Assembly: GCA_964642735.1 (NCBI GenBank)
Contig: CAZXSV010000011.1
Coordinates: forward strand, 21,589 to 85,588
DNA from: an uncultured Acidobacteriota bacterium
GTDB taxonomy: Bacteria; Acidobacteriota; UBA6911
DNA length: 64,000 nucleotides
Direction: 5' to 3'
In this document: positions 18,794-60,489 of the stretch, piece by piece
How the letters are laid out: each line of letters opens with the position of its first letter
How positions within the stretch are numbered: the stretch's first letter is position 1
Program-made: the position numbers and the translations under genes
Notes under the pieces: generated by a model
The model's database searches: none
Told to the model about the DNA's origin: nothing
Seen by the model: the letters and a program-made list of their open reading frames with translations, nothing else

Positions 18794-19690
18794 TCAGATC
18801 TGGAAATTCGCATCAGGCCGAATCCCGGCGCCGGCCTCCAAAACGCCCGACAGATTGCGCCAGAGGCTTTTTATTTCCTGAGCGACCCTGCCGCTGGAAT
18901 ACTCGACTACCGGAACTCCACGAACAATGGATTCCGTAACAACGTTGTCAAAAGGTATTTTCCCCGCTATCTTGACTCCCCGGCCCAAACACTGGCTTTC
19001 TATCCGCCTTGCATTATCTTGATTCAAATCGCATTTGTTGATGCAAACCATAGCCAGGACGCCGAAATGTTTGCAGACGTCAAGCACTCTGTCCAAATCA
19101 TGCATCCCCGAAAGAGTGGGTTCGGCAACCAGCAGGGCCAGGGAGGCCCCGGACAGCGATGAAATTACCGGGCAGCCGATGCCGGGAGGGCCGTCGCATA
19201 TAATCAATTCTTTCCCTTCGCTCTCAGCGATTTTTTTGGCATGGCGCCGCACCACGGCGACAAGCTTTCCAGAGTTCTCCTCGGCGACGCCAAGCCGGGC
19301 GTGAACCAGCGGCCCGAACCTGGTTTCGGAAACAAACCAGTGTCCGCACATTCTATCTTTCATCGATATGGCTTCGGCGGGACAGATCAAGGAGCAAAAT
19401 TTGCAGCCTTCGCAGGAAACGGGATCGACGCAGAAATTTTCAATCGCGCCAAAACGGCAAATTTCCCGGCATTGGCCGCACTGGGTGCATTTTTCAGGAT
19501 CGATATAGGCGGCCTGCCCGCTCCAGAACTCGTTTTTCTGCCGCTCCTCCGGACAAAGCAGCAGATGAAGATCCGCAGCGTCCACATCGCAGTCGGCGAG
19601 CGCCTTGTTATCCGCCAAAACCGCCAGTGAACCGACGATGGTGGTTTTCCCGGTCCCCCCTTTACCGCTCAGTATGACAATTTCTTTCAT
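18794..19690 (-). CDS. MinD/ParA-type P-loop ATPase with an inserted 2x[4Fe-4S] ferredoxin domain
   Basis: ILSGKGGTGKTT deviant Walker A, plus CTQCGQCREICRFGAI and CEGCKFCSLICPAEAI. The ATG at 19690 overlaps the upstream paralog by 29 nt. Confidence 0.8.
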   Translation of the reverse strand: MKEIVILSGKGGTGKTTIVGSLAVLADNKALADCDVDAADLHLLLCPEERQKNEFWSGQAAYIDPEKCTQCGQCREICRFGAIENFCVDPVSCEGCKFCSLICPAEAISMKDRMCGHWFVSETRFGPLVHARLGVAEENSGKLVAVVRRHAKKIAESEGKELIICDGPPGIGCPVISSLSGASLALLVAEPTLSGMHDLDRVLDVCKHFGVLAMVCINKCDLNQDNARRIESQCLGRGVKIAGKIPFDNVVTESIVRGVPVVEYSSGRVAQEIKSLWRNLSGVLEAGAGIRPDANFQI

Positions 19691-23517: not shown

Positions 23518-23636
23518 AGCGCGCCCCTGCCCCGCTTTCTTTCATGCAGACGCCGTGCCACAGACGGGATGTTTTTGCACAAAGCGCTTCCTGCCGGCCT
23601 ATCGGCGCCGCCGCCGGAAAACATGGATACGATACA

Positions 23637-40493: not shown

Positions 40494-41651
40494 CTAAGCG
40501 TTCGCTTCTATGGATGAAATGCCGCGAAGCCGCCGGACGGTATCGGCCAGGGCGGCGACGACAGCATCGACGTCCTCCTCTTTCGTGCTCCTGCCGAACG
40601 AGACCCTGACGGAGCTTTGCGCTTCCTTGGGAGAAAGCCCCATCGCGAGAAGGACATGCGAGGGCTCCGGGTCGCCTGTGGAGCATGCGGAGCCCGTCGA
40701 AACATAGATTCCGCGAAGGTCCAATCCAAGAACGATAGATTCCCCGTCGACGGACTCGAAACTCAGGCTGGAAGTGTTCGGCGCGCGCGGCGAGGACGAT
40801 CCGTTGATTTTCACTCGCGGCGCCGCGGAAACGATCCGGGACTCAAACCGGTCGCGAAGGCGCCGCAGCCGCCTGGATTCGGCAGCCGAAGACTCGACCG
40901 CCAAGGCGAGCGCGTGAGCGAATCCGACAATGCCGGCGACATTTTCCGTTCCGGCGCGCAAACCGCGCTCATGCGGCCCGCCGGTGAGGATGGGATCGAC
41001 CGGAGTCCCTTCGCGGACGTACAGCGCAGCCGTCCCCTTGGGGCCGTATATCTTGTGGCCGGAAACGGAAATAAGGTCGGCGCCGAGCTCGCACAACCGG
41101 CCGGGCATCTTGCCCGCCGTCTGCACCGCGTCCGTGTGAAATACAACGCCGCGCCTTTTAGCCAGCGCGGCGATCTCCTCAACCGGCTGGAGCACGCCGG
41201 TCTCGTTGTTGGCGTGCATGACGCTGATCAGGACGGTCTCCGGGCGCAAACTTGATTCGACGTCCTCAACGCGGACGGCGCCGCCGGCCCCGACCGGCAG
41301 ATAGGAGATCCGTCTGCCTTCAGATTCCAGGGCTTTGCACGTGTGGAGCACGGCGTGGTGTTCGATCGCCGTTGTTACGATGTGATCGCCGCGCGACCGC
41401 AACGAGCGCGCCACTCCGCGAATCGCAAGGTTGTCCGATTCCGTGCCGCAGGAAGTAAAAAATACTTCCGCAGGCTTGCACCCGAAGCAATCGGCGACGC
41501 TCTCCCGGGCCTTTTCCACGGCGAGCCTGGCCTGATTGCCGAAGCTGTAAGGGCTGGAGGGATTGCCCCAGCGATCGTTCAGGAAAGGAAGCATGGCTTC
41601 CAGGACCCGGCCGTCCAGCGGGGTTGTCGCGTTGTAATCGAGATAGATCAC
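40494..41651 (-). CDS. nifS: Cysteine desulfurase NifS
   Basis: IYLDYNATTP, SGHKIYGPKG (PLP Lys) and STGSACS (active Cys loop). The GTG at 41651 overlaps the nifU stop (GTGA). The track start at 41867 lies inside nifU. Confidence 0.9.
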   Translation of the reverse strand: MIYLDYNATTPLDGRVLEAMLPFLNDRWGNPSSPYSFGNQARLAVEKARESVADCFGCKPAEVFFTSCGTESDNLAIRGVARSLRSRGDHIVTTAIEHHAVLHTCKALESEGRRISYLPVGAGGAVRVEDVESSLRPETVLISVMHANNETGVLQPVEEIAALAKRRGVVFHTDAVQTAGKMPGRLCELGADLISVSGHKIYGPKGTAALYVREGTPVDPILTGGPHERGLRAGTENVAGIVGFAHALALAVESSAAESRRLRRLRDRFESRIVSAAPRVKINGSSSPRAPNTSSLSFESVDGESIVLGLDLRGIYVSTGSACSTGDPEPSHVLLAMGLSPKEAQSSVRVSFGRSTKEEDVDAVVAALADTVRRLRGISSIEANA

Positions 41652-42121
41652 CGTTTCTTCTCCTCGCGAGCGAGCTTTCTCGCCTCCCAATCCCTTATGG
41701 CCGCCTGAAGGGCCAAAACGCCCAGCAGCGAACAGTGCTTTTTCCTTTCCGGAATCCCTCCGAGGGCCTCCACAACGTCGTCGTCCGTTATTCTCCCAGC
41801 TTCTTCTATAGACTTCCCTTTCGCCAGGGCGGTCAACATGCTGCTGGTGGCGATCGCACCCGGACATCCGAAAGATTTAAACGCAATCTTTTCGATCCGC
41901 TCGGACTTGACCGATATCCAGAGCTTCATCTGGTCGCCGCAGGAGGGGTCGCCGACCAATCCGTATCCATCCGTCTCGCTCTCCGGCAGTTCTCCTGCAT
42001 TGCGCGGATTGATGAAATGATCGATGACATCTTCATTGTAAAAAAGGACAGGTCCCGAATACCGGGGCTGTTCTTTATTCTCATCCGTATTCTCATCCGT
42101 CGGTGGTTTTTCCATAGCCAT
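41648..42121 (-). CDS. nifU: NifU/IscU-type Fe-S scaffold (N-terminal-domain type)
   Basis: GDPSCGDQMKLWI, FGCPGAIATSS and KKHCSLL, the three scaffold Cys motifs. Confidence 0.85.
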   Translation of the reverse strand: MAMEKPPTDENTDENKEQPRYSGPVLFYNEDVIDHFINPRNAGELPESETDGYGLVGDPSCGDQMKLWISVKSERIEKIAFKSFGCPGAIATSSMLTALAKGKSIEEAGRITDDDVVEALGGIPERKKHCSLLGVLALQAAIRDWEARKLAREEKKR

Positions 42122-42167
42122 TGATTCTCCCCGCCATCACTTTACACGGGTTTTCGCAGAAAGTCAG

Positions 42168-42182
42168 GCGATCCCTAAGCCA
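42168..42182 (-). promoter_or_regulatory. Sigma-54 promoter candidate upstream of nifU-nifS
   Basis: The minus strand reads TGGCTTAGGGATCGC with exact spacing. The -12 box is TCGC (GC conserved). It lies 47 nt upstream of the ATG at 42121. Confidence 0.35.
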
Positions 42183-42271
42183 TCCCACAGGCCGATGCGC
42201 CGGCTTGACCTCGGGGCGTCCGGAAGATGTGGGAAGGGATGGAATGCAACAAAATTGAATATAATGTTTTA

Positions 42272-42284
42272 TTGCAGAATGCAA
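42272..42284. promoter_or_regulatory. Type-1 palindrome TTGCAGAATGCAA
   Basis: Perfect arms, centred about 97 bp upstream of the GG of the 42168-42182 candidate, in the thioesterase/nifU intergenic gap. Confidence 0.4.
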
Positions 42285-42291
42285 TGAGCAT

Positions 42292-42765
42292 TTACAGCGC
42301 TTCGTCGCTCCCTCCGGCCTGGATCAAATCCCGGTCGATAAATTTGGCCGAGGCCCGGACCAGAGTCCGCCCTTCCTGCTCCAGCTCCGCTTCCATCACA
42401 TACAGCGGCGGCTCATATTCCCTGATCCAGGCCTTGACGGTAGCCGGGCGATCGATTTCCACCGGAAGAAGGAATCGGACGATGAGCCTTGCCGTCACCG
42501 CAACGATTCTGCGGGCGAAAAGACAATTGGCCATCGCAGAATCCAGCAGCATAGAACTGACGCCTCCGTGCAGAAAACCCGGATACCCTTGATACACCCG
42601 GCTGCATGAAAACTCCGCCTGGACGCCCTTGTCGTCCCGAAGGGAAAACTCGAGTGCAAGCCCCGTAGCGTTCCCCGCGCTGCACGTGATGCAGTTCGGA
42701 TGCGCCAGTCTCCTGGTAGTTTCAAGATCTTGCGTGCAAGGGTCAACCATATAAATATCGTTCAA
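42292..42765 (-). CDS. PaaI-family hotdog-fold thioesterase
   Basis: YQGYPGFLHGGVSSMLLDSAMANC core motif, 157 aa. Confidence 0.75.
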   Translation of the reverse strand: MNDIYMVDPCTQDLETTRRLAHPNCITCSAGNATGLALEFSLRDDKGVQAEFSCSRVYQGYPGFLHGGVSSMLLDSAMANCLFARRIVAVTARLIVRFLLPVEIDRPATVKAWIREYEPPLYVMEAELEQEGRTLVRASAKFIDRDLIQAGGSDEAL

Positions 42766-42775
42766 AATGAAAGAT

Positions 42776-43150
42776 TTAATGACCGCACTGCCCGCCGTGT
42801 TCCTGACAGGAATCGTTCATTGAAAGCTCTTGAAGCCTGTCTTCTTTCAATAATGCGATATTTTCGTCGATGGTTGCGGCGCCCGCTCTGTAAACCTTTA
42901 CGCCCATCGCGTTGAATTTCGAAACGGCCCCCGGGCCCATGCCGCCTACAATCATCGCATCGACGCTGTTCCCTCCAAGGGTCATAAACGGATTGCAGAC
43001 GCCATGCTCCCGATGAGAGTTGGCATTATCCACCGCGGAAATCTGCAGATTGTCGACGTCGACAATGACAAATGCGGGCGCCGAGCCGAAGTGTCCATAA
43101 ACAGCGCTTTTAAGTCCTTGATTGAATTGAACCGGGAAACCAACCTTCAT
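42776..43150 (-). CDS. NifX/NifB-C-terminal-like cofactor-binding-fold protein with a Cys/His tail
   Basis: VYGHFGSAPAFVIVD...AMIVGGMGPGAVSKFNAMGVKVY, with tail DSCQEHGGQCGH. Confidence 0.8.
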   Translation of the reverse strand: MKVGFPVQFNQGLKSAVYGHFGSAPAFVIVDVDNLQISAVDNANSHREHGVCNPFMTLGGNSVDAMIVGGMGPGAVSKFNAMGVKVYRAGAATIDENIALLKEDRLQELSMNDSCQEHGGQCGH

Positions 43151-43231
43151 CTCTTTCTCCTTCGATTAAATTTAATTGGGAACGTTTCTCAAACCGAGCC
43201 GATCTCCTTCCAAAACTCGTCCTGCTTTCAA

Positions 43232-43246
43232 GCAATTTGATGGCCC
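43232..43246 (-). promoter_or_regulatory. Sigma-54 promoter candidate for the nifX-like-thioesterase unit
   Basis: The minus strand reads GGGCCATCAAATTGC with exact GG-N10-GC spacing. It lies about 85 nt upstream of the ATG at 43150. Confidence 0.4.
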
Positions 43247-43309
43247 TATTATAGGAAATTTTCTCTACGATTTAAACCTCTTCGCTCTGTCTTCGCACGG
43301 TTGCACGAC

Positions 43310-43324
43310 AGGCACGCCGATTGC
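43310..43324 (+). promoter_or_regulatory. Sigma-54 promoter candidate for DUF364 copy 2 (and possibly EBP2)
   Basis: AGGCACGCCGATTGC has GGCACG at -24 and TTGCT at -12 with exact spacing. It lies about 75 nt upstream of the ATG at 43399. Confidence 0.65.
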
Positions 43325-43398
43325 TTTTTTGAACACTTTCGATACAATGGGGCCGGGCGAGAGGATGGGTCGCTTTTCCACAATGCGGAGGATTTTTC

Positions 43399-44145
43399 AT
43401 GCTGGCGAATGAAATAGCCGATCACGGACTCACGCTCGTCGATCGTCACACCGTTTCCGACATCCGAATCGGTCTTGGCTATACAGCGGTCCTGCTCGAC
43501 GACGGCCGGTGCGGCTTGGCCTACACCCTGCACGAACAGCCCTACGAGTCCTGCAGCGTGATTTCCGAAGCCGGGACACTGGCCGGAAGAAAAGCGTCGG
43601 AATTGATCCCCTGGATGAAATCTAAGGATGTCACGGCCTGCGCCGTCGGGTTGGCGACGCTCAACGCCCTGATCCGTCCGCATGCCGCGGCGGCGGAATC
43701 CGACATCATCGACCTGCTGCCGGTGAACCCCGGCGATCGAGTCGGGATGGTCGGCTATTTCGGCCCGCTGGTTGCGCCGATAAAAAAACGGGCTCAAGCC
43801 CTCTACATCTTCGAACGCAAGGCCAATTCCGAATACGACATATTGCCCGAATCGGCGGCGGAAGAACTGCTTCCCACATGCCAGGTTGCCATCCTGTCCG
43901 CGACCGCAATCATGAACCACACCATCGACAGGCTGCTCGGATTGTCCGAATCAGCCCGCGAAATTGCAGTCCTTGGCCCTTCCACTCCTTTTCTGCCTGA
44001 AATCTTCCGTTCGTACGGCGTAACAATGCTTTCAGGAATTCAAGTCGTCGATTCCCGCCGGATCCTTCAGATTGTGAGCGAAGCGGGCGGCACCCGGCTG
44101 TTTGGCCGTGCGGTCCGGAAGCTTTCCTTGCGCTGCGCCGCATAA
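43399..44145 (+). CDS. DUF4213/DUF364 protein, copy 2
   Basis: IRIGLGYTAVLLDDGRCGLAYTL and VGMVGYFGP, collinear with copy 1. Confidence 0.75.
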   Translation: MLANEIADHGLTLVDRHTVSDIRIGLGYTAVLLDDGRCGLAYTLHEQPYESCSVISEAGTLAGRKASELIPWMKSKDVTACAVGLATLNALIRPHAAAAESDIIDLLPVNPGDRVGMVGYFGPLVAPIKKRAQALYIFERKANSEYDILPESAAEELLPTCQVAILSATAIMNHTIDRLLGLSESAREIAVLGPSTPFLPEIFRSYGVTMLSGIQVVDSRRILQIVSEAGGTRLFGRAVRKLSLRCAA

Positions 44146-44198: not shown

Positions 44199-44242
44199 TT
44201 GCATAATGCAAATGTTTTGACATTATTTAATGCATAATGCAA
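44199..44242. promoter_or_regulatory. Pair of type-1 palindromes (TTGCATAATGCAA and ATGCATAATGCAA), 31 bp centre to centre
   Basis: Sites at 44199-44211 and 44230-44242, ending 25 nt before the EBP2 ATG. The order and spacing match the pair at 23637-23680. Confidence 0.5.
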
Positions 44243-44266
44243 TATTTTTCCGGGAAGGACGGCAAG

Positions 44267-45637
44267 ATGAAGGAACCGGACGAACGGGAAAAAACAATTC
44301 TGGACTCGATTAATGAAGGCGTTTTCACGGTCGATCTCGACTGGCGGATCACCGCCTTCAATCGGGCGGCCGAACACATAACCAGGGTAAGCAGGCGGGA
44401 GGCTCTGGGACAGCAGTGCTTTGAAGTTTTCCGGGCCAGCATCTGCGAAAACGCATGCGCGCTTAGACGGACGATGTCCAGCGGTAAACCGGTGCTGAAC
44501 GCCACCGCTCATATCGTCAGCCGGGGCGGAGAGCGCATTCCCATCCGCATCTCCACCGCTCTCTTGAAAAACAGCGCCGGGCAAACCATCGGTGGAGTCG
44601 AAACTTTCCAGGATTTGAGCCCCATCGAACAACTGCAGAAGGAATTAAAATCCCGATACACATTTGAAGACATCGTCGGCCGAAGCGCGGCCATGATGAA
44701 GCTCTTCGACATCCTGCCGCAAATCGCCGACAGCTCCAGCACCGTTTTGATTGAAGGGCCCAGCGGCACGGGCAAAGAGCTGTTTGCGAAAGCCATCCAC
44801 AGTCTCTCCCCGCGAAAGAAAAAGCCGTTTATCGCGGTCAACTGCGCAGCCCTGCCCGACACCCTGCTGGAAAGCGAGCTTTTCGGCCATAAAGCCGGCG
44901 CCTTCACCGACGCGCGGCGCGACAAACCCGGGCGTTTTGCGCTGGCGAACGGCGGCACCCTGTTTCTGGACGAAATCGGGGACATTTCGCCGGCGATGCA
45001 GATACGGCTCCTGCGCGTCCTCCAGGAGCGCATGATCGAACCCCTGGGATCCGTCGAACCGATAAAAGTGGACGTGCGGATTGTCGCGGCCACGAACCGG
45101 GTCTTGAGCCGTCTGGTCCAGGAAGGACGCTTCCGCGATGATCTTTTCTATCGCATCCGCGTCGTCAGTCTGAACCTGCCGAGCCTCTGCCAGCGCCGGG
45201 AGGACATTCCGCTCCTGGTGGATCATCTGGTGGCAAAGCTGAACCTGCTTCAGGGAAAAGACATCGAGGGCGTATCGGAAGAAGTAATGGCGCAACTGAT
45301 GGAATACGAATACCCCGGGAATGTCCGGGAACTGGAGAATATTATCGAGCAGGCCTTCGTGCTGTGCCGCGGGCGGCTGATTGAGCTTCATCACCTTCCG
45401 GCCGAACTCCGTCCCGCCGGGGCTTCGGGCATCGGGAAAAGCAACCCCATGTCTCTTCAGGCCATGGAAAAGCTGCTGATCAGCGAGGCGCTTCGCCGCC
45501 ACAGAGGCAGCCGGAGCAAAGCAGCCAGACAGCTGGGGATCAACCCGAGCACGCTTTACCGGAAAATGAAGTTTCTGAACATTGATTTTAAAAAAGAACA
45601 GCTGGGAATCCGGCAGGCGCCCGGGAAAAAAGACTGA
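44267..45637 (+). CDS. Sigma-54-dependent transcriptional activator, PAS - AAA+ - Fis-HTH (EBP2, paralog of EBP1)
   Basis: GPSGTGKELFAKAIH, GAFTDA loop, C-terminal AARQLGINPSTLYRKMKFL. The ATG at 44267 (GGAAGGACGG RBS) aligns with the EBP1 N-terminus, whereas the track start at 44237 lies inside the palindrome. Confidence 0.9.
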   Translation: MKEPDEREKTILDSINEGVFTVDLDWRITAFNRAAEHITRVSRREALGQQCFEVFRASICENACALRRTMSSGKPVLNATAHIVSRGGERIPIRISTALLKNSAGQTIGGVETFQDLSPIEQLQKELKSRYTFEDIVGRSAAMMKLFDILPQIADSSSTVLIEGPSGTGKELFAKAIHSLSPRKKKPFIAVNCAALPDTLLESELFGHKAGAFTDARRDKPGRFALANGGTLFLDEIGDISPAMQIRLLRVLQERMIEPLGSVEPIKVDVRIVAATNRVLSRLVQEGRFRDDLFYRIRVVSLNLPSLCQRREDIPLLVDHLVAKLNLLQGKDIEGVSEEVMAQLMEYEYPGNVRELENIIEQAFVLCRGRLIELHHLPAELRPAGASGIGKSNPMSLQAMEKLLISEALRRHRGSRSKAARQLGINPSTLYRKMKFLNIDFKKEQLGIRQAPGKKD

Positions 45638-45800: not shown

Positions 45801-46190
45801 TTATTTCTTTCCAGTCACGCTGATCACTCGGATCACGCCCGTTCCCGAAAAGGAATCGCCATAAACAGTCGTTCCGGATAGTTTCAAAACGTTTTCGCCT
45901 TTCACTACCGCATCTTTAACATCCGCAGAATTAAACTTTGCGACGAAGTTTCCCCGATCGTCGGATTTCCACCAGGCGATCGGAATGTCATTCAGCGTGA
46001 CGCTGGCGCCGACCACGATGCCATACGCAATATCGGTGTGGATAGTGACAACTTCCCCCTGATAGGCAAGATTGAGGGTGCTCGGGGCAATATCGATGTC
46101 GATGGCTATGTCCGCGCTTTTAGCCGGAGCGGCAAAAAACATCAACGCCAAAAAACTCAGCGCGAGGGTTGGAAACATTAACTTTTTCAT
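45801..46190 (-). CDS. Small secreted beta-rich hypothetical protein
   Basis: MKKLMFPTLALSFLALMFFAAPAKSAD signal peptide, followed by about 100 aa with alternating beta-strand-like patterns. I prefer the ATG at 46190 (GGGAG RBS). Confidence 0.6.
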   Translation of the reverse strand: MKKLMFPTLALSFLALMFFAAPAKSADIAIDIDIAPSTLNLAYQGEVVTIHTDIAYGIVVGASVTLNDIPIAWWKSDDRGNFVAKFNSADVKDAVVKGENVLKLSGTTVYGDSFSGTGVIRVISVTGKK

Positions 46191-46275
46191 CGGCGCAACT
46201 CCCATGCAGAGAAATTAAAGCTTCTCTGCTCCAATTAAATTCAAAAATCTGAAATTAAGCCTGATTATTATTAAC

Positions 46276-46290
46276 GCAATAATTATGCCA
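46276..46290 (-). promoter_or_regulatory. Sigma-54 promoter candidate for the small secreted-protein gene
   Basis: The minus strand reads TGGCATAATTATTGC, close to the TGGCAC-N5-TTGC consensus, with exact spacing. Confidence 0.7.
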
Positions 46291-46363
46291 GCCGGCGACA
46301 GGGATTGTGCGCCTAAAAAAGCCAATTATTTCATCTATTCCGCCAAAATCCGAGTCCGACGGA

Positions 46364-46398
46364 GTGCAGAAATTGCACGACCGGTGCAATTTCTGCAT
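46364..46398. promoter_or_regulatory. Type-2 tandem palindromes GTGCAGAAATTGCAC - 5 bp - GTGCAATTTCTGCAT
   Basis: Two 15-bp GTGCA-N5-TGCAC-like elements that are near-exact mutual reverse complements (14 of 15 positions), 20 bp centre to centre. The pair starts 73 bp beyond the -24 edge of the 46276-46290 promoter. Confidence 0.55.
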
Positions 46399-46692
46399 CC
46401 GAAAATCATCGTTTAACGATTGCTTCGGGGCGAGACGCTACTCCGGGGGCGATGGAGAGGTTTTTCTCGATTGATCCGATTGGCATTATGCTTGATCCGC
46501 CGCTTCATCCAACCGATGCCGACCGCCTAGCCCTGTCCCTGGTTTCCGCCGACCGCCTCTCCCCTGCGGGAATGCAGCCGGAAACAGAAGCAGGGGCATT
46601 GTCGCGCAATCCCAATCTTTATTATCCTCGCGACTCCTCCGCTATGCCCTATCGATCGGTTCATTCGCCATTCTTCAGTTCACTTCATCAGT

Positions 46693-47277
46693 TCAATTCA
46701 TTGCGTCGATGCGGCTGTTGAAAGCGTCCAGGTGTCGAGCAGATCCGTTCAACAAATTCCCATAAACTTTCAAAACATCTTTGTTGTCCGTTTCGTTTAT
46801 CGCAATTTTCAGGTCGTCGATGTCCTTTTCTTCAATCGCCACGCCTGCCGCCAGCGCGTCCGGCAGAGAACGCCTGCCCTTGTCAATCAAATCGTAATAA
46901 AGCTTCTGAAGTTCGGGATTGGTAAAAATCCCGGGCGACGGTTGTGCGAGATCGGGCAGCCCGTAGCGTTCGATCAGAATTCCGACAGCTTCAAAATGCC
47001 GCTGCTCGCTGGCCGCGATGTTGCTGAAAATCGGCGTTCGCCACCTGGCATAAAGCGCCCGGTATACGTCGCGGGCAAGTTTTTCCTCTTCTCTTAAAAA
47101 AAGAAGATGTTCCGCTTCCTTTGCATTCAAAGGCTGCAGGACGGCGGCAGGCTGCATCGGGCAGTTTCCGCTTCGATTTTCTGCGCCATTCTGAGCCCGT
47201 AAACCCTTCTGCGCCCAACCGGAAGCAGAAGCGGCAATAATCAAACACAGCATGCAAATCGCTTTCAAGCATTTCAT
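46693..47277 (-). CDS. DUF2202 (ferritin-like) secreted protein
   Basis: MKCLKAICMLCLIIAASASGWAQ signal peptide. LFLREEEKLARDVY...ASEQRHFEAV...AIEEKDIDDL...GSARHLDAF shows ferritin-like EExxH repeats. Confidence 0.7.
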   Translation of the reverse strand: MKCLKAICMLCLIIAASASGWAQKGLRAQNGAENRSGNCPMQPAAVLQPLNAKEAEHLLFLREEEKLARDVYRALYARWRTPIFSNIAASEQRHFEAVGILIERYGLPDLAQPSPGIFTNPELQKLYYDLIDKGRRSLPDALAAGVAIEEKDIDDLKIAINETDNKDVLKVYGNLLNGSARHLDAFNSRIDAMN

Positions 47278-47339
47278 TGTCTTCTTTCCTTTCCTGCTGT
47301 TTGTTCGGTCCATCCCTTGATTCCTTCGCATCTGCTTGC

Positions 47340-47355
47340 TGCAAGAGTCGTTCCC
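47340..47355 (-). promoter_or_regulatory. Sigma-54 promoter candidate for the DUF2202 gene
   Basis: The minus strand reads GGGAACGACTCTTGCA with GG, AC and TTGCA at consensus positions and exact spacing. It lies about 63 nt upstream of the ATG at 47277. Confidence 0.5.
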
Positions 47356-47429
47356 GATGCTGCTTGCCTCTGTTGTCCAATAAAACCAATGATTTAAAAA
47401 ATTTTCAAAATCGGGGCGGCGCCTGAGGA

Positions 47430-47464
47430 GCGCAATATCTGCGCAATCGACGCAAAAATTGCAG
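47430..47464. promoter_or_regulatory. Type-2 tandem elements GCGCAATATCTGCGC - 5 bp - ACGCAAAAATTGCAG
   Basis: Same architecture as 46364-46398: two 15-mers and a 5-bp spacer. The pair starts 74 bp beyond the -24 edge of the 47340-47355 promoter. The 15-mers match the other locus at 12/15 and 11/15 positions. Confidence 0.5.
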
Positions 47465-47478
47465 TCGGGCGGAGAGGA

Positions 47479-49284
47479 TCAGAGAGGCCAGAGCAGCGGC
47501 GTCAGGACCATGGCCAGCAGAAAAACGATTGCCGTAAGGCTGAGCCCGGCACGGAAATAATCGCCGAACTTATAGCCTCCGGGACCCATGACCAACACAT
47601 TGGCCGGATGGCTGACGGGCGTCAGGAATCCCGAAGAAGAGCCCAAAACAATCATCATGATCAAGGGATAAGGGCTTATCTGATGCTGCGCGGCGGCGCT
47701 CAACGCGACAGGAGCGATCAAAACCGTTGTGGCGGCGCCCGACAACAACTGAGCCAGGAGCATGGAAAATAGGAAGAACCCGGCCAGCACCGCAAGATCC
47801 CCCAAAGGACTCAGCACATTCAAAAGGCCGCGCGACATCAGGTCCGCCGCTCCGCTTTTGGTCAAGGCCGTTCCGAGCGAAAGCATGCCTCCGATCAGCA
47901 CGACCGCTTTCCACTCGACAGCCCGATAGCCTTCCTCGATCTTGAGAGCGCCGGAAAGAGCCATTGCCAGCACGCCCGCGAGCGACGCTGCGGCGATGTG
48001 CAAAAAACCGAAACCGGCGGCCAGGAGCATCAGGCCGAGTCCCGCCAGAGCCCAGGGCGCCTTGTCCGGCCTCCCTATTTCCCCGAGAGCCGGCTCTTCC
48101 AGTACGATAAAATCCTTTTCCTGATCGAGCAGCTTGATTTGCGGGCGCGGGCCTTGCACCAGCAGCGTATCGCCGAAACGCAGAGGAGTGTTTTCCGCGC
48201 CGAGGAGGATCGGCCCCCCGTCCCGCATAATGGCGATCGCCGTAAGACCGAATTTTTGGCGGAAGTTGACTTCCCGCAAGGACTGTCCGACGATTCCGGC
48301 GTGAGGAGAAATCAACGCTTCCACCACTCCGACGTTGAGGTCGGCAAGATCCACATTCAAGCCCGATCCCGCCGACTCAAGCCTCAGGCCAAGACGATCT
48401 TGAGCCGCTTGCAGGCTTGCGCGGTCGCCCTTGATGATCAGCCTGTCTCCGGAATGCAGGAGGTCGCCGGTTTGCGGCGCCAGCAGGACTTTCCGTCCGC
48501 GAAGCAGGCCGAGAATATTCAAATTAAAGGAGCGGCCCAGCCCGCTTTCCGCAACGCTCCTGCCGGCCAGGGGCGATCCCGGGAGAATGCGCGCCTCGAA
48601 AACCAGGTCGGGAAGCCGATACATTCTGGCCAGTTCTCCCGGATTTTCCCACGCCTTCATCGCCTCCCTGGCCGGATTATTCGGCAGCATCCTCCTGCCC
48701 AGAACGGCCATAAATGCGATACCCGCCAGGCTCATGACGGCGCCGATGCGGAAAAAATCAAACAGGCTGAAAGGCTCCAATCCCGCCCGCCGCAACGCGT
48801 CGTTGGCGAGGAGGTTGACCGTGGTCAACAGCGTCGCCATGCCGCCCAGGAGGGCGCCGAAAGAAAGCGGGATCATCAATTTCGAAGAGGGGATTCCGGT
48901 GCGCCGCGAGATGCTTTTCAGTCCGGGAAGCAGCACCGACGCCGCGGCGATATTGTTCATGACCAGCGAAAGAGTCGCGGACGCCGTCATCGCAACCGCG
49001 ACCAGCCGCGCCTCGTTTTTCCCGGCGATGCGGAAAATGCCAGTTCCGATCCTCGCGGCAATGCCGGTGTTGGTCAAACCGGCCGTGATCAGAAAAACGG
49101 CGGCGATCGTGACGACGGCGGGATTGGCGAATCCCGCTAGGGCGTCGGTCAGGTCGAGAGTCCGGCTGAGCAGCAGCGCGACCATTGTCAGCATCGCGAC
49201 AACATCCGGGCTGAAAATGTCGGCGATGAAAAGAATGATTGCCGCGGCCAGGATGCACAAGACGAGGATAATTTCGACAGTCAT
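47479..49284 (-). CDS. SLC13/DASS-family anion permease with two internal TrkA-C (RCK_C) domains
   Basis: Two blocks of TM helices flank two RCK_C-like segments (ARILPGSPLAGRSVAES..., EALISPHAGIVGQSLREV...). I prefer the ATG at 49284. Confidence 0.85.
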   Translation of the reverse strand: MTVEIILVLCILAAAIILFIADIFSPDVVAMLTMVALLLSRTLDLTDALAGFANPAVVTIAAVFLITAGLTNTGIAARIGTGIFRIAGKNEARLVAVAMTASATLSLVMNNIAAASVLLPGLKSISRRTGIPSSKLMIPLSFGALLGGMATLLTTVNLLANDALRRAGLEPFSLFDFFRIGAVMSLAGIAFMAVLGRRMLPNNPAREAMKAWENPGELARMYRLPDLVFEARILPGSPLAGRSVAESGLGRSFNLNILGLLRGRKVLLAPQTGDLLHSGDRLIIKGDRASLQAAQDRLGLRLESAGSGLNVDLADLNVGVVEALISPHAGIVGQSLREVNFRQKFGLTAIAIMRDGGPILLGAENTPLRFGDTLLVQGPRPQIKLLDQEKDFIVLEEPALGEIGRPDKAPWALAGLGLMLLAAGFGFLHIAAASLAGVLAMALSGALKIEEGYRAVEWKAVVLIGGMLSLGTALTKSGAADLMSRGLLNVLSPLGDLAVLAGFFLFSMLLAQLLSGAATTVLIAPVALSAAAQHQISPYPLIMMIVLGSSSGFLTPVSHPANVLVMGPGGYKFGDYFRAGLSLTAIVFLLAMVLTPLLWPL

Positions 49285-49420
49285 GACGATCGGAGAATAG
49301 AATTTTGAATTCAAACAGGCAAGGAAGAATTTCATTCGAAGCTGTGGACCGGCGATTTGCATGCTATGATTGGGATCCGCCGACGCAGACTATGCGCCAT
49401 GGCGTGGAGGCGCAAGAATC

Positions 49421-50680
49421 ATGACAGATGACGCCGCCGTAAAAAATCGCGATCCGAAGAGTCCGGCGCCCCGCCGGCTGATCATCCTTGTCGCTTTCAT
49501 GCTTTGCCTGGCGCTTCTGGCTTCCGGGCTTTTCACCTTCGCCACGCTTTCGCGCCTGCGCGTCTATTATCTCACCCATCGATGCCAGGAGATCGCCTCC
49601 GCCATCGATCTTCAGGTCCGCGGACCGGGGCGGCGCAACAACCCGGAGTTCTGGAGATCCGTTTTTGAAAGCAATTTTGAAACTTATTCCGGTTCCGTCG
49701 CTCTCCTGGCGCTGGTAGATCAAAACGGAAATCTTCTCGCAAGCAAGGAAACAGAGGAGATCCAAAGCGGCGGCGTTTATTATTTCGATCACACGCTTCC
49801 GCGGTCCCGCATCGCTCACGGCGAAGGAAGTCAATCCACCTCCGGCTGGCGCGTGCGCGTCGGCCTGCGCTCGGCGGAGGCGGATTTCATTCGACGGATA
49901 GCCTTCCTGCAACTCGTCGTTTCGGGCCTGGCGATCGCCGCGATCATCGCGCTCTCGCGGCATCTTGTTCGCATGCTAAGCCGCTTTATGGAATTGAAAG
50001 CGCGCGAAAGCGCGGAGGTTCAGCTGAAGTCCCTGGGAATCATGGCCGCGTCGCTGGCGCATGAGATACGGAATCCCTTGGGAGCGATGAAAGGGCTGAC
50101 CCAGCTTGCCCAGGAGGAGCTGCCTCCGGACCATGCCGCTCAAGCACAGCTGCAAACCGTCGTCGGCGAAGCAGAACGCCTGGAAAAGCTGGTAGCGGAT
50201 TTGCTTGATTTTGCGCGCGCCAAAGAGCCGCAAATCATCGAGTTCGACTTGGCCAACCTGTTGTCGGACGTCAAAATCATGCTGAAATCCAGGCTGGACG
50301 AGTCCAAAACAGATCTTCGGTTCTCCGTGGATCCCGATCCCTTCATTCTGAGATCCGATCCCTCCGGACTGCGGCAGGTCCTGCTCAACGTGCTCATCAA
50401 CGCAATCGAAGCATCGCCTCCGGGCGGCGCCGTCGCGTTAACGGCGTTGCGCCGCGAAAATCAGAGATCCATCGCCCTGGAGGTCGACGACTCCGGCTCG
50501 GGCCTGGGCGTGAAAAATCCCGAAGATCTGTTCCATCCATTCGTGACGACAAAAGTGCGGGGGACAGGCCTGGGGCTTACGGTGTCGAAACAAATTGTCG
50601 AAAGCCTGGGCGGCAGTCTGAGCCTGGGGAATTTGCCGAACGGCGGCGCGCGATGTTCTATCGTTCTTCCGATGAACTGA
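49421..50680 (+). CDS. Sensor histidine kinase (2 TM, extracytoplasmic loop, HisKA + HATPase_c)
   Basis: H-box SLAHEIRNPLGAM, N-box LLNVLINAIEA, G-boxes DDSGSGL and GTGLGL. Confidence 0.85.
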   Translation: MTDDAAVKNRDPKSPAPRRLIILVAFMLCLALLASGLFTFATLSRLRVYYLTHRCQEIASAIDLQVRGPGRRNNPEFWRSVFESNFETYSGSVALLALVDQNGNLLASKETEEIQSGGVYYFDHTLPRSRIAHGEGSQSTSGWRVRVGLRSAEADFIRRIAFLQLVVSGLAIAAIIALSRHLVRMLSRFMELKARESAEVQLKSLGIMAASLAHEIRNPLGAMKGLTQLAQEELPPDHAAQAQLQTVVGEAERLEKLVADLLDFARAKEPQIIEFDLANLLSDVKIMLKSRLDESKTDLRFSVDPDPFILRSDPSGLRQVLLNVLINAIEASPPGGAVALTALRRENQRSIALEVDDSGSGLGVKNPEDLFHPFVTTKVRGTGLGLTVSKQIVESLGGSLSLGNLPNGGARCSIVLPMN

Positions 50681-50694
50681 CCAGGGAAAAAGCG

Positions 50695-52035
50695 ATGAAA
50701 TGCAGCATTCTTGCAGTGGACGATGAACCAAGCCAGCGCCAGTTCATAAGCGGCGCTCTTTCCAAGGATTATGAGGTCGTAACCGCGGCGAACGGGTCGG
50801 AGGCGTCCCAGCTGCTGTCGCACCGTAACTTTAACCTCGTAATCACCGATGAACGCATGCCGGGCATGGGTGGGATCGAGTTGATCCGCTGGATGCGCGA
50901 GAAATCTCCGGAAACGCCGGTTGTCGTCATCACAGCGTATGGTTCCATCGAAACCGCCGTGGAGGCCATCAAACTGGGAGCGGAAGAGTACCTCATCAAG
51001 CCGCTGAAAAGCCCGGAAGAGCTTCGCGTCATCGTGGCAAAAGTCCTGCAAAGCCGGACTTTGAAAAACAGGAGCCTTTTGCTTCAGGAGGAAACCGAGG
51101 CCGCGCTTCCGCCCGATGTGGTGGCTGAAAGCGAAAGCATGAAACGAATCTTCCAGATGGCGGACCAGGTGGCCAAACAGAACACGACCGTCCTGCTGAC
51201 GGGCGAATCGGGGACCGGGAAAGAGGTCGTCTCCCGGTTCATTCATCGCCGGAGCCTGCGCAAAGACCATTCTTTCGTCGCCGTCAACTGCTCCGCGATC
51301 CCCGAGACGCTGCTGGAATCCGAGCTGTTCGGCCACGAGAAGGGATCGTTCACCGGAGCGGTTCAAACCCGGCGAGGCCGCTTTGAACTTGCGGATGAGG
51401 GGACTCTTTTCCTGGATGAAATAGCGGAGATGAGCGCGAATCTGCAGGCCAAACTGCTCCGCGTGCTCCAAAATCAACAGTTTGAGCGCCTCGGCGGCGA
51501 CCGGACCATGACCGTGGATGTCCGGGTGATCGCGGCCACCAATCGAGACCTCCCTCAATCGATTGCGAACGGCTCGTTTCGGGAAGACCTTTATTACCGG
51601 CTCAATGTCTTCCCGATCCATATCCCGCCTTTGCGGGAGAGACGGGACGACATCCTGCCCCTTGCAAATTCCTTTTTAAAAGTCCTTGCATCCCGCACCG
51701 GAAAAGCCGTTCAATCGATCAGTCCGGAAGCCATGGAACTGCTGAGCGGCTACGATTGGCCGGGAAACGCGCGCGAACTGGCCAACGCCATTGAAAGGGC
51801 CTTGATTGTTTCACAGGGCGCGACCCTGGAAGCCGACGATCTGCCGTTCAAACAAGGCGCCGGCGAAGCCAGACTCGGGCGTCCAGGACTGCTGGCGCAG
51901 ATCGAGAAAACCGCGATTCTCGAAGCTCTCGCTCGAAACAATGGAGACCGCAAGGCGGCTTCGGAAGAACTTGGCATCAGTCTGCGCACGCTTCAGTATC
52001 GGCTGAAGGAATATGGGATAAGCGGCCGGGAATAA
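50695..52035 (+). CDS. NtrC-family sigma-54-dependent response regulator (REC - AAA+ - Fis-HTH)
   Basis: ILAVDDE and LVITDERMPG receiver motifs, GESGTGKEVVSRFIH, GSFTGA loop, and C-terminal ASEELGISLRTLQYRLKEYGI. Confidence 0.9.
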   Translation: MKCSILAVDDEPSQRQFISGALSKDYEVVTAANGSEASQLLSHRNFNLVITDERMPGMGGIELIRWMREKSPETPVVVITAYGSIETAVEAIKLGAEEYLIKPLKSPEELRVIVAKVLQSRTLKNRSLLLQEETEAALPPDVVAESESMKRIFQMADQVAKQNTTVLLTGESGTGKEVVSRFIHRRSLRKDHSFVAVNCSAIPETLLESELFGHEKGSFTGAVQTRRGRFELADEGTLFLDEIAEMSANLQAKLLRVLQNQQFERLGGDRTMTVDVRVIAATNRDLPQSIANGSFREDLYYRLNVFPIHIPPLRERRDDILPLANSFLKVLASRTGKAVQSISPEAMELLSGYDWPGNARELANAIERALIVSQGATLEADDLPFKQGAGEARLGRPGLLAQIEKTAILEALARNNGDRKAASEELGISLRTLQYRLKEYGISGRE

Positions 52036-54410: not shown

Positions 54411-55517
54411 GTGAAACGCTGGACGTTTGTACTTTTCTGCATCCCGATAACCGCCGGAATATTTCTGGATCAAGGCAAAGCAAACGGGAAGGCCGGCGGC
54501 AAGGAGATTTTCCGTTCTGCCTGCGCAGCCTGTCATGGCGCAAACGGCAAAGGCGCTCCCGACAACTTGCGCGCCTTTGAAAAACCGGACACTTTTCCCG
54601 ATTTCACCGACTGCGTCGCCACCGCGCGCGAATCCGACGATTTCTGGGGCGCCATTATACGGAACGGCGGGCCGGGCAGAGGATTTTCGGAAATTATGCC
54701 CTCTTTCCGCGAAGCGCTCAACGACGACGAAATCAACGAAGTCATGAAATACCTGAGAGTATTTTGCCGGGAGCCCGCCTGGCCGCGCGGCGAATTGAAT
54801 TTCCCGCGCCCTCTTGTCTTGGAAAAAGCATTTCCGGAAGACGAAATGGCAATGGACGTGGCTATTAATGCGGAAGGCGACGCGGCCATCAGCAACAAAG
54901 TCGTCTATGAAAAGCGTCTGGGGGCTCGGGGACAGCTCGATGTGGTCGTGCCGTTCAAGTTTCAGAAAGCCGGGGGCGCCGAATGGCAGAATGGGGTGGG
55001 CGACATCGTCGCGGGATACAAGCACGTGTTGATAGGCAATCTCCGGTCCGGCTCCATTCTCAGCGTCGCCGGAGAAACGGTGTTCGCAACCGGAGACGCG
55101 ACACGCAGCATGGGCAAAGGAGTCACGGTGATCGAGGGGTTCGCCAGCTATGGCCAGATCTTGCCCAAAAACGCTTTTCTCCAGTTTCAAACCGGGATTG
55201 AACTGCCGGTGGATGCGGACAGGGCCAATCGGGCGGTGTTTTGGCGTACGGTCGTAGGCAAAAGTTTCGCCAATAAAGGGGATGGACGGCAATGGTCGCC
55301 CATGGTCGAATTTCTGGCGGACAGGGAATTTGCTTCAGGAGAAAGAATCAACTGGGACATCGTTCCGGAGTTTCAGGTGACGCTGAACCGACGTCAGCAC
55401 ATCAGAGCCAATATCGGCTTGCGTCTTCCCCTAAACGATTTCGGACCCAGGCCCACGCAGGTTCTCTTCTACCTGATGTGGGACATGTTTGATGGAGGCC
55501 TGCGCGATGGCTGGTAA
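54411..55517 (+). CDS. Monohaem cytochrome c domain fused to a beta-strand-rich (outer-membrane-barrel-like) domain
   Basis: Signal peptide, CAACH haem motif and the distal IMPSF Met-ligand motif. About 240 aa of alternating-strand sequence (GVGDIVAGYKHVLI...) follows, ending in an aromatic residue (DGW). GTG start after GGAGG. Confidence 0.6.
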   Translation: MKRWTFVLFCIPITAGIFLDQGKANGKAGGKEIFRSACAACHGANGKGAPDNLRAFEKPDTFPDFTDCVATARESDDFWGAIIRNGGPGRGFSEIMPSFREALNDDEINEVMKYLRVFCREPAWPRGELNFPRPLVLEKAFPEDEMAMDVAINAEGDAAISNKVVYEKRLGARGQLDVVVPFKFQKAGGAEWQNGVGDIVAGYKHVLIGNLRSGSILSVAGETVFATGDATRSMGKGVTVIEGFASYGQILPKNAFLQFQTGIELPVDADRANRAVFWRTVVGKSFANKGDGRQWSPMVEFLADREFASGERINWDIVPEFQVTLNRRQHIRANIGLRLPLNDFGPRPTQVLFYLMWDMFDGGLRDGW

Positions 55518-57147
55518 CGATATGCCTGGAACTTTTCGTTTTCGCCGGCTGACGATCCTTGCGGCGATAGGCTTGGCGTTGTTCGTCTACGGCGCCGAGC
55601 CTGCGGACCGATCCGGCGTCCCGCATTTCCAAACGTCCGACCGGTGCGTCGCCTGCCACAACGGCCTCGCCACGCAATCCGGCGAGGATGTTTCGATAGG
55701 ACTGGCCTGGCAGCCAACCATGATGGCCAACTCCGCGCGCGACCCATACTGGCATGCAGGAGTGCGGCGCGAGAGCATCGATCACCCGGAATCGAGGACG
55801 GCAATCGAGGACGAATGCTCAATCTGCCACATGCCTATGGCGCGTTTCGAATCGAAGCTGGACGGCCATGAGGGCGCCGTCTTCGCCCGCCTGGGATTTC
55901 TGCCCGACGACCGCGGCGACATGCTGGCGGCCGATGGAGTCTCCTGTTCGCTGTGCCATCAAATAGCGAAAGAAAAGCTCGGAACGCGAGAAAGTTTTGT
56001 AGGCAATTTCACGATCGGCGGCCCGACGGCGCAGGGCGAACGGCTGGAATTCGGACCCTACGCGACCGACGCCGGGCTCGTCAGAATTATGCGCAGTTCA
56101 ACCGGCGGATTCCGCCCTGAGGAGTCCGCGCACATCCGCGAAAGCGAGCTCTGCGCAACCTGCCACACGCTGATCACCAAAACTCTCGGGCCGGGAGGCA
56201 AAGCAATCGGCGAATTTCCGGAGCAGGTCCCTTACCAGGAATGGCTGCACAGCGACTACCGGGGCGCGCGCAGCTGCCAGTCCTGCCATATGCCCGCGAT
56301 TGGGGAAGAAGTCGCCATCGCCAGCGTGCGCGGCGCGCCGCGCACCGGCGTCGCCCGCCACACGTTCCTGGGCGGCAACTTCTTCATGAATGCCATTCTC
56401 AACCGCCACCGGCACGAACTAAGCGTTGCAGCTTCTCCAGATGAACTCATGGGCAACGCGAACAAAACAAAAGAGCATCTCCAGTCCGAAGCGGCGCGGA
56501 TATCCATTGACAAAATGGAAGAGCGCAACGGGAGGCTGGAAGCTGAAATTTCGATACAAAACCTCGGCGGCCATAAACTGCCGACCGCGTATCCGTCGCG
56601 AAGAGTCTGGCTGCACGTGATCGTCAGGTCCGGGGACAACCGCGTGATATTCGAGTCGGGAGCATTGAGACCGACCGGCGCCATCGCCGGCAACGACAAC
56701 GATGCGGATGCCGATCGATTTGAACCGCATTACACGGAAATACGCAGCGCCGGACAGGTGCAAATCTACGAAGCGATCATGGCCGACAGCAACGGCAGGG
56801 TAACGACCGGGCTGCTGAGCGCCCTCCGCTATGCGAAAGACAACCGGCTTCTCCCGCGGGGATTTGCGAAAAAATCCGCGAATGCGGACATCGCGGCAGC
56901 CGGAAAAGCCCTGGAAGACGACGATTTCGTGGGCGGCGGAGATCGGATTCGATATTCGATTGAAACGGGCGGCGCACGGGGCCCGTTCCTGATTGAGGCG
57001 GAACTGTGTTACCAGTCGATCGGATATCGATGGGCCCTGAATTTAAAGTCCTACGACGCCGACGAAACCCGGCGGTTTGCGGCCTATTATGAAATGGCAT
57101 CCGCTTCTTCGATGCTGGCGCTGGCCCGGGCGCAAAGGCGGCAATGA
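55489..57147 (+). CDS. Pentahaem c-type cytochrome with a large C-terminal non-haem domain
   Basis: Five CxxCH motifs (CVACH, CSICH, CSLCH, CATCH, CQSCH). The start is ambiguous (55489, 55507 or 55522) and overlaps the upstream stop. Confidence 0.8.
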   Translation: MMEACAMAGNDMPGTFRFRRLTILAAIGLALFVYGAEPADRSGVPHFQTSDRCVACHNGLATQSGEDVSIGLAWQPTMMANSARDPYWHAGVRRESIDHPESRTAIEDECSICHMPMARFESKLDGHEGAVFARLGFLPDDRGDMLAADGVSCSLCHQIAKEKLGTRESFVGNFTIGGPTAQGERLEFGPYATDAGLVRIMRSSTGGFRPEESAHIRESELCATCHTLITKTLGPGGKAIGEFPEQVPYQEWLHSDYRGARSCQSCHMPAIGEEVAIASVRGAPRTGVARHTFLGGNFFMNAILNRHRHELSVAASPDELMGNANKTKEHLQSEAARISIDKMEERNGRLEAEISIQNLGGHKLPTAYPSRRVWLHVIVRSGDNRVIFESGALRPTGAIAGNDNDADADRFEPHYTEIRSAGQVQIYEAIMADSNGRVTTGLLSALRYAKDNRLLPRGFAKKSANADIAAAGKALEDDDFVGGGDRIRYSIETGGARGPFLIEAELCYQSIGYRWALNLKSYDADETRRFAAYYEMASASSMLALARAQRRQ

Positions 57148-57399
57148 CGTTCCGCGTGATTGGCGGCAGTCAATTTACGACCTGAGGGAGGCGGATCTCT
57201 CGCCACAAGGGCAATCGCCTCATCCCTGTTCAGGTTCGTCCAAACCAATTCATCGGCTTTTATTGACCTTGCAGGCGGGCGCAGCATCCCGTCGCCGGCG
57301 CCGAAATACTATCCAGCGGCCAAGAAGCCCCTTGAGACGCAGGAACGGATCTTACCCGCGTTCTATTCCGGATTTCTTTCTCCAGCTCCCGCAGCACCT

Positions 57400-60135: not shown

Positions 60136-60489
60136 GCCAAGTGGCCTCCTTTCAATTTTCAGGGCTTTCCCCGAAGCGGGCGGTCTTATCGACCCTCGCG
60201 GCAAGCATTGGCTGCGACCTGCGCCATAGAATAGGCCGAAACGCTGCGGCTCCCGGAGCTTTCATGAAAATCAGCAGCCGGAGGACGCGTTCATTTTTCT
60301 CCGATACGAGTGCCGTTCCGCGACGATTCCGATCCCAAGGAGCCGTCGCCTCTGGATTTTCCCGCATCTGTGGTTCACTGCAGCGGCAGGGCCGGTCGGA
60401 ATTGCGCAGCCCGAGGCCGTGGGTCGACTGTCGCCGATGCTGCACTTCATCAGGATTGAACCTCGATCCTGCCGGCAATTTCGGGCGAT

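Follow-up and report, generated by a model that had tools for sequence, protein, structure and literature searches.

Two tandem arrays of TGCA-type dyads, which we call UAS-A and UAS-B (UAS, upstream activating sequence), lie in a 64,000-nucleotide stretch of DNA from an uncultured acidobacterium of the GTDB lineage UBA6911 (assembly GCA_964642735.1, contig CAZXSV010000011.1, positions 21,589 to 85,588; hereafter the window). Judged from the DNA and protein sequences, both are very likely AtoC-type enhancers of sigma-54 promoters, and the AtoC-like response regulator encoded in the same window is the protein expected to bind their tandem sites. Each array consists of two dyads with five bases between the TGCA boxes (N5 sites), is followed at a fixed and helically phased distance by a sigma-54-type promoter, is conserved together with the regulator in related genomes, and is nearly identical to the AtoC site of E. 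coli. Promoter A faces the gene for a 129-residue secreted protein and promoter B the gene for a secreted ferritin-like DUF2202 protein.

At each locus, two 15-mers are separated by a 5-bp spacer and lie 20 bp apart from centre to centre, as the first-pass annotation of this DNA had reported; on direct reading, its sequences and coordinates for the two loci were all correct (Table 1). In UAS-A, the outer ends of the four TGCA boxes are 33 bp apart. The annotation had also claimed the same enhancer-promoter distance at both loci, and this held with gaps of 73 bp at A (46291-46363) and 74 bp at B (47356-47429). Both promoters keep the GG-N10-GC arrangement. Two descriptions needed adjustment. 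The 15-mers are real, but their outermost G/C pair is unconserved, and the conserved core is the 13-mer yTGCA-RAWTY-TGCAy. An AT-rich segment between enhancer and promoter is present at B (57% AT, with phased A/T tracts) and only weakly so at A (49% AT, compared with about 44% in the window). Each of these segments contains an IHF-like block, which is a weak match to the consensus YAANNNNTTGATW at A and a partial one at B, and which may serve to bend the DNA.

Within the window, the pattern GCA-N5-TGC-N9-GCA-N5-TGC matched twice, at the two loci and with 0 mismatches in both cases, compared with 0.28 matches expected even with 1 mismatch allowed. A weight matrix trained only on sites of other loci, without the window's own sites, ranked the four 15-mers first, second, fourth and sixth among about 64,000 positions, and scored the two UAS pairs at 37.8 and 30.3, against 11.4 for the next-best pair. 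Neither single GCA-N5-TGC sites (30 found, 23 expected) nor sigma-54 consensus matches (38 found, 30 expected) were enriched in the window, so that the signal resides in the tandem arrangement and its conservation. Two single matches to the matrix, at 31036-31050 (score 17.3) and 19392-19406 (14.7), are located inside coding sequence, the former overlapping a start codon and signal peptide. They have no partner site and no sigma-54 promoter nearby, and on account of their coding location and unpaired state were set aside as most likely due to chance.

The regulator has more than 100 relatives (counted as protein clusters) at 70-86% identity, and those that are named come from Acidobacteria. 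Eleven relatives with at least 71% identity were fetched with their surroundings, and eight of these 11 loci contained the motif (individual loci are given below by L numbers). In all seven loci with a regulator at least 75% identical, a DUF2202 gene lies beside the kinase-regulator pair, in divergent or collinear orientation, and the tandem N5 element is found upstream of it. The compiled set comprised 15 promoters with tandem sites from 13 loci, amounting to 30 sites. The consensus yTGCA-RAWTY-TGCAy occurs twice per element across the 15 promoters, and the N5 spacing is kept in 30 of 30 sites. Conservation extends to positions outside the search pattern, namely T2 (20/30), R6 (28/30), Y10 (30/30) and A14 (26/30). 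The paired sites are 19-21 bp apart from centre to centre, except for 32 bp in L170, and 13 of the 15 promoters reach a score of at least 10.7, for which the chance is 3.6% per 190-nt stretch.

An alignment of eight promoters reduced the invariant columns to the two sites, an AA-N4-TTG block and GG...TTGC, with almost nothing else conserved. In total, the tandem sites, the promoter and between them the IHF-like block AANNNNTTG recur before orthologous genes of at least 13 further acidobacterial loci; L001, L003 and L090 have the perfect consensus, of which the window has a partial version. Promoters of the B type, GG(A/C/T)ACAG.T.TTGCA, were found for six orthologous genes with a gap of 75-76 bp, and the DUF2202 orthologues of L001, L003, L086, L089 and L090 carry the element at the same promoter distance. 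The 129-residue protein has a 61% identical orthologue in L174, in a different genomic context, preceded by the element ATGCAGGAATTGAAT-tggcc-CCGCAAATCCTGCAC and the promoter CGGCAAATTTTTTGCC with a gap of 74 bp; no activator gene was found within 7 kb of it. The first-pass annotation had named a lack of conservation upstream of orthologous genes as grounds for giving up its proposal, and the elements are conserved for both the DUF2202 and the 129-residue protein genes.

Table 1. Coordinates of the enhancer loci and associated features (window positions unless a related locus is named).
Feature	Position	Strand	Sequence or remarks
UAS-A promoter-proximal site	46364-46378	minus	GTGCAGAAATTGCAC on plus; matrix score 18.5
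UAS-A, complete (locus A)	46364-46398		spacer gaccg between GTGCAGAAATTGCAC and GTGCAATTTCTGCAT
UAS-A promoter-distal site	46384-46398	minus	GTGCAATTTCTGCAT on plus; core TGCA-N5-TGCA; matrix score 19.2, highest in window
IHF-like block A	46320-46332	minus	GAAATAATTGGCT; aligns with the invariant AA-N4-TTG columns of eight promoters
Sigma-54-type promoter A	46276-46290	minus	TGGCATAATTATTGC; GG 46288-46289, GC 46276-46277; score 13.2
Promoter A extended by one base	46275-46290	minus	TGGCATAATTATTGCG
UAS-B promoter-proximal site	47430-47444	minus	GCGCAATATCTGCGC on plus; matrix score 13.6
UAS-B, complete (locus B)	47430-47464		spacer aatcg between GCGCAATATCTGCGC and ACGCAAAAATTGCAG
UAS-B promoter-distal site	47450-47464	minus	ACGCAAAAATTGCAG on plus; matrix score 16.8
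IHF-like block B	47384-47396	minus	TAAATCATTGGTT; within A/T-tract segment
Sigma-54-type promoter B	47340-47355	minus	GGGAACGACTCTTGCA; score 11.7
Target gene A	45801-46190	minus	129-residue secreted protein; signal peptide, immunoglobulin-like (Ig-like) beta-sandwich
Target gene B	46693-47277	minus	194-residue secreted ferritin-like DUF2202 protein; Pfam PF09968, 1.5e-44
DASS/CitMHS-type transporter gene	47479-49284	minus	TrkA-C domains; stop codon 15 bp from UAS-B
Sensor histidine kinase gene	49421-50680	plus	two transmembrane segments, periplasmic domain of about 130 residues, HisKA, HATPase_c
AtoC-like sigma-54 activator/response regulator gene	50695-52035	plus	receiver, AAA+, Fis-type helix-turn-helix; proposed binder of both UAS
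PAS-type sigma-54 activator genes	44237-45637; 22141-23517
TGCA-N3-TGCA matches	14787; 16362; 23638 and 23669; 34023; 34816; 42273; 44200 and 44231
Divergent sigma-54-like promoter, L001	8492-8507		CGGAATATTTCTTGCT or variant
Divergent sigma-54-like promoter, L003	8491-8506		CGGAATATTTCTTGCT or variant
Divergent sigma-54-like promoter, L086	6489-6504		CGGAATATTTCTTGCT or variant
Divergent sigma-54-like promoter, L085	6502-6517		CGGAATATTTCTTGCT or variant

The gap between UAS and promoter takes only certain values: 73-76 bp for DUF2202 type I, the Q-rich protein described below and the 129-residue protein, 95-99 bp for DUF2202 type II and the divergent kinase promoters of L001, L003, L086 and L085, 117 bp for the DUF4405 gene of L170, and 140 bp in L004. 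The steps are of about 21 bp, or two helical turns, and the distances from the UAS centre to the -24 element fall near whole turns (Rayleigh R 0.89, p about 0.01; five classes, including E. coli ato with 95.5 bp). Quantised and phased gaps are a signature of activation from one helix face through a DNA loop. The sites could also be operators of another factor, for example an ArsR-like repressor, or the promoters could be independent of sigma-54. ArsR-like genes are indeed present in two related loci, L004 and L085, a sigma-70-like hexamer pair overlaps promoter A, and the sigma-54 consensus is not enriched across the window. However, neither the window nor most of the loci have an ArsR-like gene close to the sites, and distances of 73-140 bp upstream of the promoter, growing by about 21 bp at a time, are usual for enhancers but not for operators. 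Moreover, GG and TTGC are invariant at the aligned position of all eight promoters, and the AtoC precedent is a sigma-54 UAS. We therefore consider this explanation very unlikely.

In four relatives, conserved sigma-54-like promoters of the CGGAATATTTCTTGCT type lie divergently on the other side of the same UAS, at a distance of 96-97 bp, and face the kinase-regulator operon. As read from these sequences, the enhancer in relatives is probably bidirectional, with autoregulation of the operon. The window was found to have no equivalent of this divergent promoter. A further sigma-54-like sequence, TGGCATTATGCTTGAT, is located on the plus strand at 46481-46496, to the right of UAS-A and 82 bp away. 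Its -24 element is good but its -12 element is broken (GA for GC), and it is possibly the remains of a divergent promoter; there is no convincing gene downstream, the open reading frame at 46452-46721 belonging to no family.

The inverted 15-5-15 arrangement might alternatively act as an RNA hairpin, that is as a terminator or processing site for minus-strand transcripts arriving from upstream (from the DUF2202 gene before A and from the transporter gene before B). Locus A can be folded into a stem of 14-15 bp (-29.4 kcal/mol, z -5.1), and locus B, 15 bp after the transporter stop codon, folds with z -2.2. Neither stem is followed by a T-run, though, and a terminator scan called neither of them. 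Nor is a long hairpin kept in orthologues: the L001 element folds with z -0.9, L086 has two separate small stems, and compensatory stem changes were absent from the orthologous loci examined. What is conserved is the placing of the four TGCA boxes and their constant, phased distance from the promoter, which indicates constraint at the DNA level. In relatives, moreover, the element sits between divergent genes, where there is nothing to terminate. We consider a hairpin very unlikely, and the least probable of the explanations weighed here.

The first-pass annotation had proposed the NtrC-type response regulator encoded next to the kinase as the candidate activator, and this proposal gained computational support from the co-occurrence of the motif with regulator orthologues and from the match to the AtoC site. 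The regulator contains a sigma-54 activator domain (PF00158, 6.7e-74) with the loop GSFTGA and an HTH_8 domain (2e-13), and its recognition helix EELGISLRTLQYRLKEYG varies little or not at all across the orthologues. The kinase has no PAS domain, and its periplasmic domain has no Pfam match. In L170, a regulator with 71% identity lies beside two N5 sites and the promoter TGGCGCAATTGTTGCA, which precede a DUF4405 gene; the motif thus follows the regulator even when the target differs. As a negative control, we used 79 loci around paralogous activators (41-50% identity, among the matches listed), and no perfect tandem match was found in these 852 kb. Taken together with the AtoC match, this co-occurrence suggests that the regulator is the cognate activator of the N5 sites. 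In the more distant lineages of L099 (435-4028), L112 and L130, a histidine kinase gene comes after DUF2202, together with one for an NtrC-type regulator that is 34-49% identical to the regulator of the window, and the N5 motif is missing. Since these loci keep the link without the motif, the association of DUF2202 with two-component systems may be older than the N5 DNA specificity.

The window also encodes two PAS-type sigma-54 activators, and one of them might bind the N5 sites in place of the response regulator. One PAS activator gene (44237-45637) and the 3' end of gene A are only about 160 bp apart, and in the closest relative, L085, a PAS activator gene is again found beside a DUF2202 gene with an N5 UAS. 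Yet seven loci (L001, L003, L004, L086, L087, L088 and L170) have the motif without a PAS activator within 8-10 kb, and the recognition helices of both PAS proteins differ from that of the regulator. The AtoC site is the counterpart of the N5 element, and the AtoC-like helix is present in the regulator and not in the PAS proteins. Both PAS genes are instead flanked by another motif, TGCA-N3-TGCA (type 1), with nine exact matches in the window compared with 1.08 expected; two pairs of these N3 sites, with a spacing of 31 bp, adjoin the two genes. Binding by a PAS activator hence seems highly improbable to us, and the earlier suggestion that the N5 motif implies an activator other than that of the N3 motif is borne out by the flanking N3 pairs, the differing helices and the absence of PAS genes from most N5 loci. 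One of the N3 pairs is flanked by two strong sigma-54-like promoters that diverge from it, at 23545 (minus) and 23813 (plus), and the other overlaps the start of the gene at 44237.

The E. coli atoC-atoD intergenic region contains ATGCAGAAATTTGCAC-ag-TGCGCAATTTTCTGCAT, with the promoter TGGCACTCCCCTTGCT downstream. PMC3118216 presents these as experimentally verified AtoC sites that are bound in vivo according to chromatin immunoprecipitation (ChIP). Summarising Matta et al. 2007, it describes the AtoC element of atoDAEB, the UAS of a sigma-54 promoter, as an inverted palindrome of 40 bp on which induction depends. The E. coli and acidobacterial elements share four TGCA boxes, a 33-bp span, two mirror-oriented dyad sites and near-identical words (ATGCAGAAAT(T)TGCAC and G(C/T)GCAATTT(T)CTGCAT). 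Locus A differs from the E. coli site by one base fewer in each A/T tract, a different spacer and two substitutions. In both cases a sigma-54 promoter follows downstream, separated from the element by an A/T-rich segment and by a distance close to a whole number of helical turns. AtoC is the best NCBIfam/curated match of the regulator, which is 46% identical over the full length and has a similar recognition helix, including LGISxRxLxYxLxEYGI. In contrast, the dyad spacing is N6 in E. coli and N5 here, the boxes starting at 0, 10, 19 and 29 in the former and at 0, 9, 20 and 29 in the latter.

This is nevertheless not an ato system, because the proteins score below the equivalog cut-offs (regulator, 468.6 bits against 714 for AtoC; kinase, 174.9 bits against 646 for AtoS), the kinase aligns only with AtoS residues 367-606, the catalytic core, and lacks a PAS domain, and no homologues of AtoD, AtoA, AtoE or AtoB were found in the window or in nine related loci. 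The targets here are secreted or periplasmic proteins. Each of the two has its own promoter and its own UAS, and the bidirectional UAS of relatives also faces the regulator operon.

Several observations weigh against our interpretation of the two loci. The -24 element of promoter B is weak (GGGAAC), and the sigma-70-like hexamers at promoter A have been mentioned above. The window does not contain rpoN. With N5 in place of N6, the specificity may differ from that of AtoC, and the regulator falls below the AtoC cut-off. Autoregulation is not evident in the window, because the transporter gene separates the operon from UAS-B. Around three further regulators with 71% identity, in L005, L169 and L171, the neighbouring genes differ and the motif is missing; these regulators may be paralogues, or may act on targets in another part of the genome. 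Finally, any locus retrieved by way of the regulator necessarily contains it, and metagenome loci anchored on DUF2202 were therefore used as well. Among the 69 of these with enough upstream sequence there were five tandem matches. Four were clear (L089, L090, L092 and L135, the first two being the closest DUF2202 relatives), and the fifth, L151, has one mismatch and an uncertain status. Where the sequence extended for at least 3 kb to either side (15 loci), the motif was present in the single locus with a regulator orthologue (75% identity) and in none of the 14 without, which leaves one informative locus in this unbiased test.

Under the proposed mechanism, the sensor kinase would phosphorylate the AtoC-like regulator, and two regulator dimers would bind the tandem sites on the same helix face and nucleate an active AAA+ ring. 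The IHF-like or intrinsically bent segment would bring this ring to the closed sigma-54 RNA polymerase complex at the GG-N10-GC promoter, about eight helical turns downstream of the sites, where ATP hydrolysis would open the promoter. The predicted outputs are the periplasmic ferritin-like DUF2202 protein and the 129-residue Ig-like secreted protein. In relatives, the same UAS would also feed the divergent kinase-regulator promoter and thereby allow autoregulation. The targets and the neighbouring genes suggest metal or redox stress in the periplasm as a possible signal.

The DUF2202 protein is homologous to MJ0754 (PDB 3q4o; E 8e-41) and keeps the ferritin-like ligand motifs REEEKLA, SEQRHF, IEE and xxH. 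The one literature match for DUF2202 lists it as a ferritin-like protein linked to ferrosome gene clusters; in the loci studied here, its gene is a conserved neighbour of the kinase-regulator pair. The 129-residue protein has no Pfam or NCBIfam family. Its AlphaFold model (predicted local distance difference test, pLDDT, 82) matches generic Ig-like folds only, with template modelling (TM) scores of about 0.4, so that the structure yields no functional clue. Members of its family adjoin DUF2202 genes in unrelated contigs of lower GC content (L096 1513-2483; L144 3852-4695). Since these contigs pair the two genes without an AtoC-like regulator and without the N5 motif, the finding suggests that the proteins of the two types work together independently of the regulator.

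Relatives carry a further gene after DUF2202, for a Q-rich secreted coiled-coil protein of about 200 residues (L001 6815-7456, L086 4819-5418, L085 5529-6077 and L003 7113-7337). The window lacks this gene. The L085 copy is preceded by a separate N5 UAS and the promoter AGGCACAGCTCTTGCA. A ZraP/CpxP-like identity of this protein was considered and dropped, as there was no significant Pfam or NCBIfam match.

The transporter gene between UAS-B and the kinase gene was found in the window only. L085 retains a 45-residue remnant of the transporter C-terminus (5126-5260, 53% identity), which points to a recent rearrangement of the locus. Upstream of the transporter, a sigma-54-like match (49385-49400, minus) scores below 10 and has no UAS. 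Across loci, the neighbouring genes encode P-type cation ATPases, RND efflux proteins, Usp, OsmC, thioredoxin, rhodanese, MntP, DUF4405 and Fe-S assembly proteins. The window stretches 40494-44145 and 54411-60204 contain NifS-like and NifU-like Fe-S assembly genes, a gene for a Nitro_FeMo-Co domain protein and DUF364/DUF4213 ("heavy-metal chelation"), together with genes for c-type and MtrC-like cytochromes and a P-type cation ATPase. Similar P-type ATPase genes adjoin the module in L001 and the orthologue of the 129-residue protein gene in L174. From targets and neighbours, a response to periplasmic metal or redox stress is a reasonable guess.

The mechanism is textbook; what is new here is the spacing variant and the predicted regulon. 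The searchable literature yielded no characterised enhancer-binding protein from Acidobacteria, and the present loci offer, for this group, a first regulon and binding motif of a sigma-54 two-component system that can be put to the test. They would tie two families of unknown function, the secreted ferritin-like DUF2202 and the unannotated 130-residue Ig-like protein, to one signal, and in relatives the regulon is predicted to extend to the kinase-regulator operon, the Q-rich protein and DUF4405. The AtoC box, known from a single high-affinity E. coli site, can now be described as the motif of a family, for which a consensus and variants in spacing can be defined.

Other known systems share parts of this design. 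The NtrC (NRI) enhancer at glnAp2 consists of two TGCACC-N5-GGTGCA sites upstream of a sigma-54 promoter. It resembles the present loci in its tandem TGCA dyads, its phosphorylated NtrC-family regulator and distant activation through a loop, which is proposed here. However, its sites are of the form GCA-N9-TGC, not GCA-N5-TGC, and are separated by about 32 bp and not by 20 bp; with a score of 407 against a cut-off of 558.6, our regulator is not an NtrC equivalog. LuxO-type sites, TTGCA-N3-TGCAA, likewise combine TGCA half-sites with a Fis-type helix-turn-helix activator. It is the TGCA-N3-TGCA motif of the window that has the LuxO geometry, whereas the N5 sites form a separate class with other places, other genes and another proposed activator, and the regulator is not a LuxO equivalog either (388 against 800).

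In enterobacteria, ZraP-ZraSR combines a sigma-54 two-component system with a divergent gene for a periplasmic metal-binding protein. Similarly, in relatives of our locus a gene for a small periplasmic protein (DUF2202, then the Q-rich protein) diverges from the kinase-regulator pair, and one intergenic UAS serves sigma-54 promoters in both directions. The differences are that DUF2202 is a ferritin-like four-helix protein and not of the ZraP/Spy/CpxP type, and that the regulator, with a score of 383 against 760, is not a ZraR equivalog. As a tentative wider reading, which we consider possible but rather doubtful, the DUF2202/kinase/AtoC-like module could be a widespread, strongly conserved acidobacterial envelope-stress circuit analogous to ZraPSR, and the AtoC box an ancient specificity shared by Proteobacteria and Acidobacteria, with sensors and regulons exchanged. 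If the former were true, a periplasmic metal or redox signal would induce a ferritin-like dimetal protein, its Ig-like partner and the system itself. If the latter were true, the 1-bp shift of the inner boxes, from N6 to N5 within the same 33-bp span, would mark a re-tuned dimer geometry.

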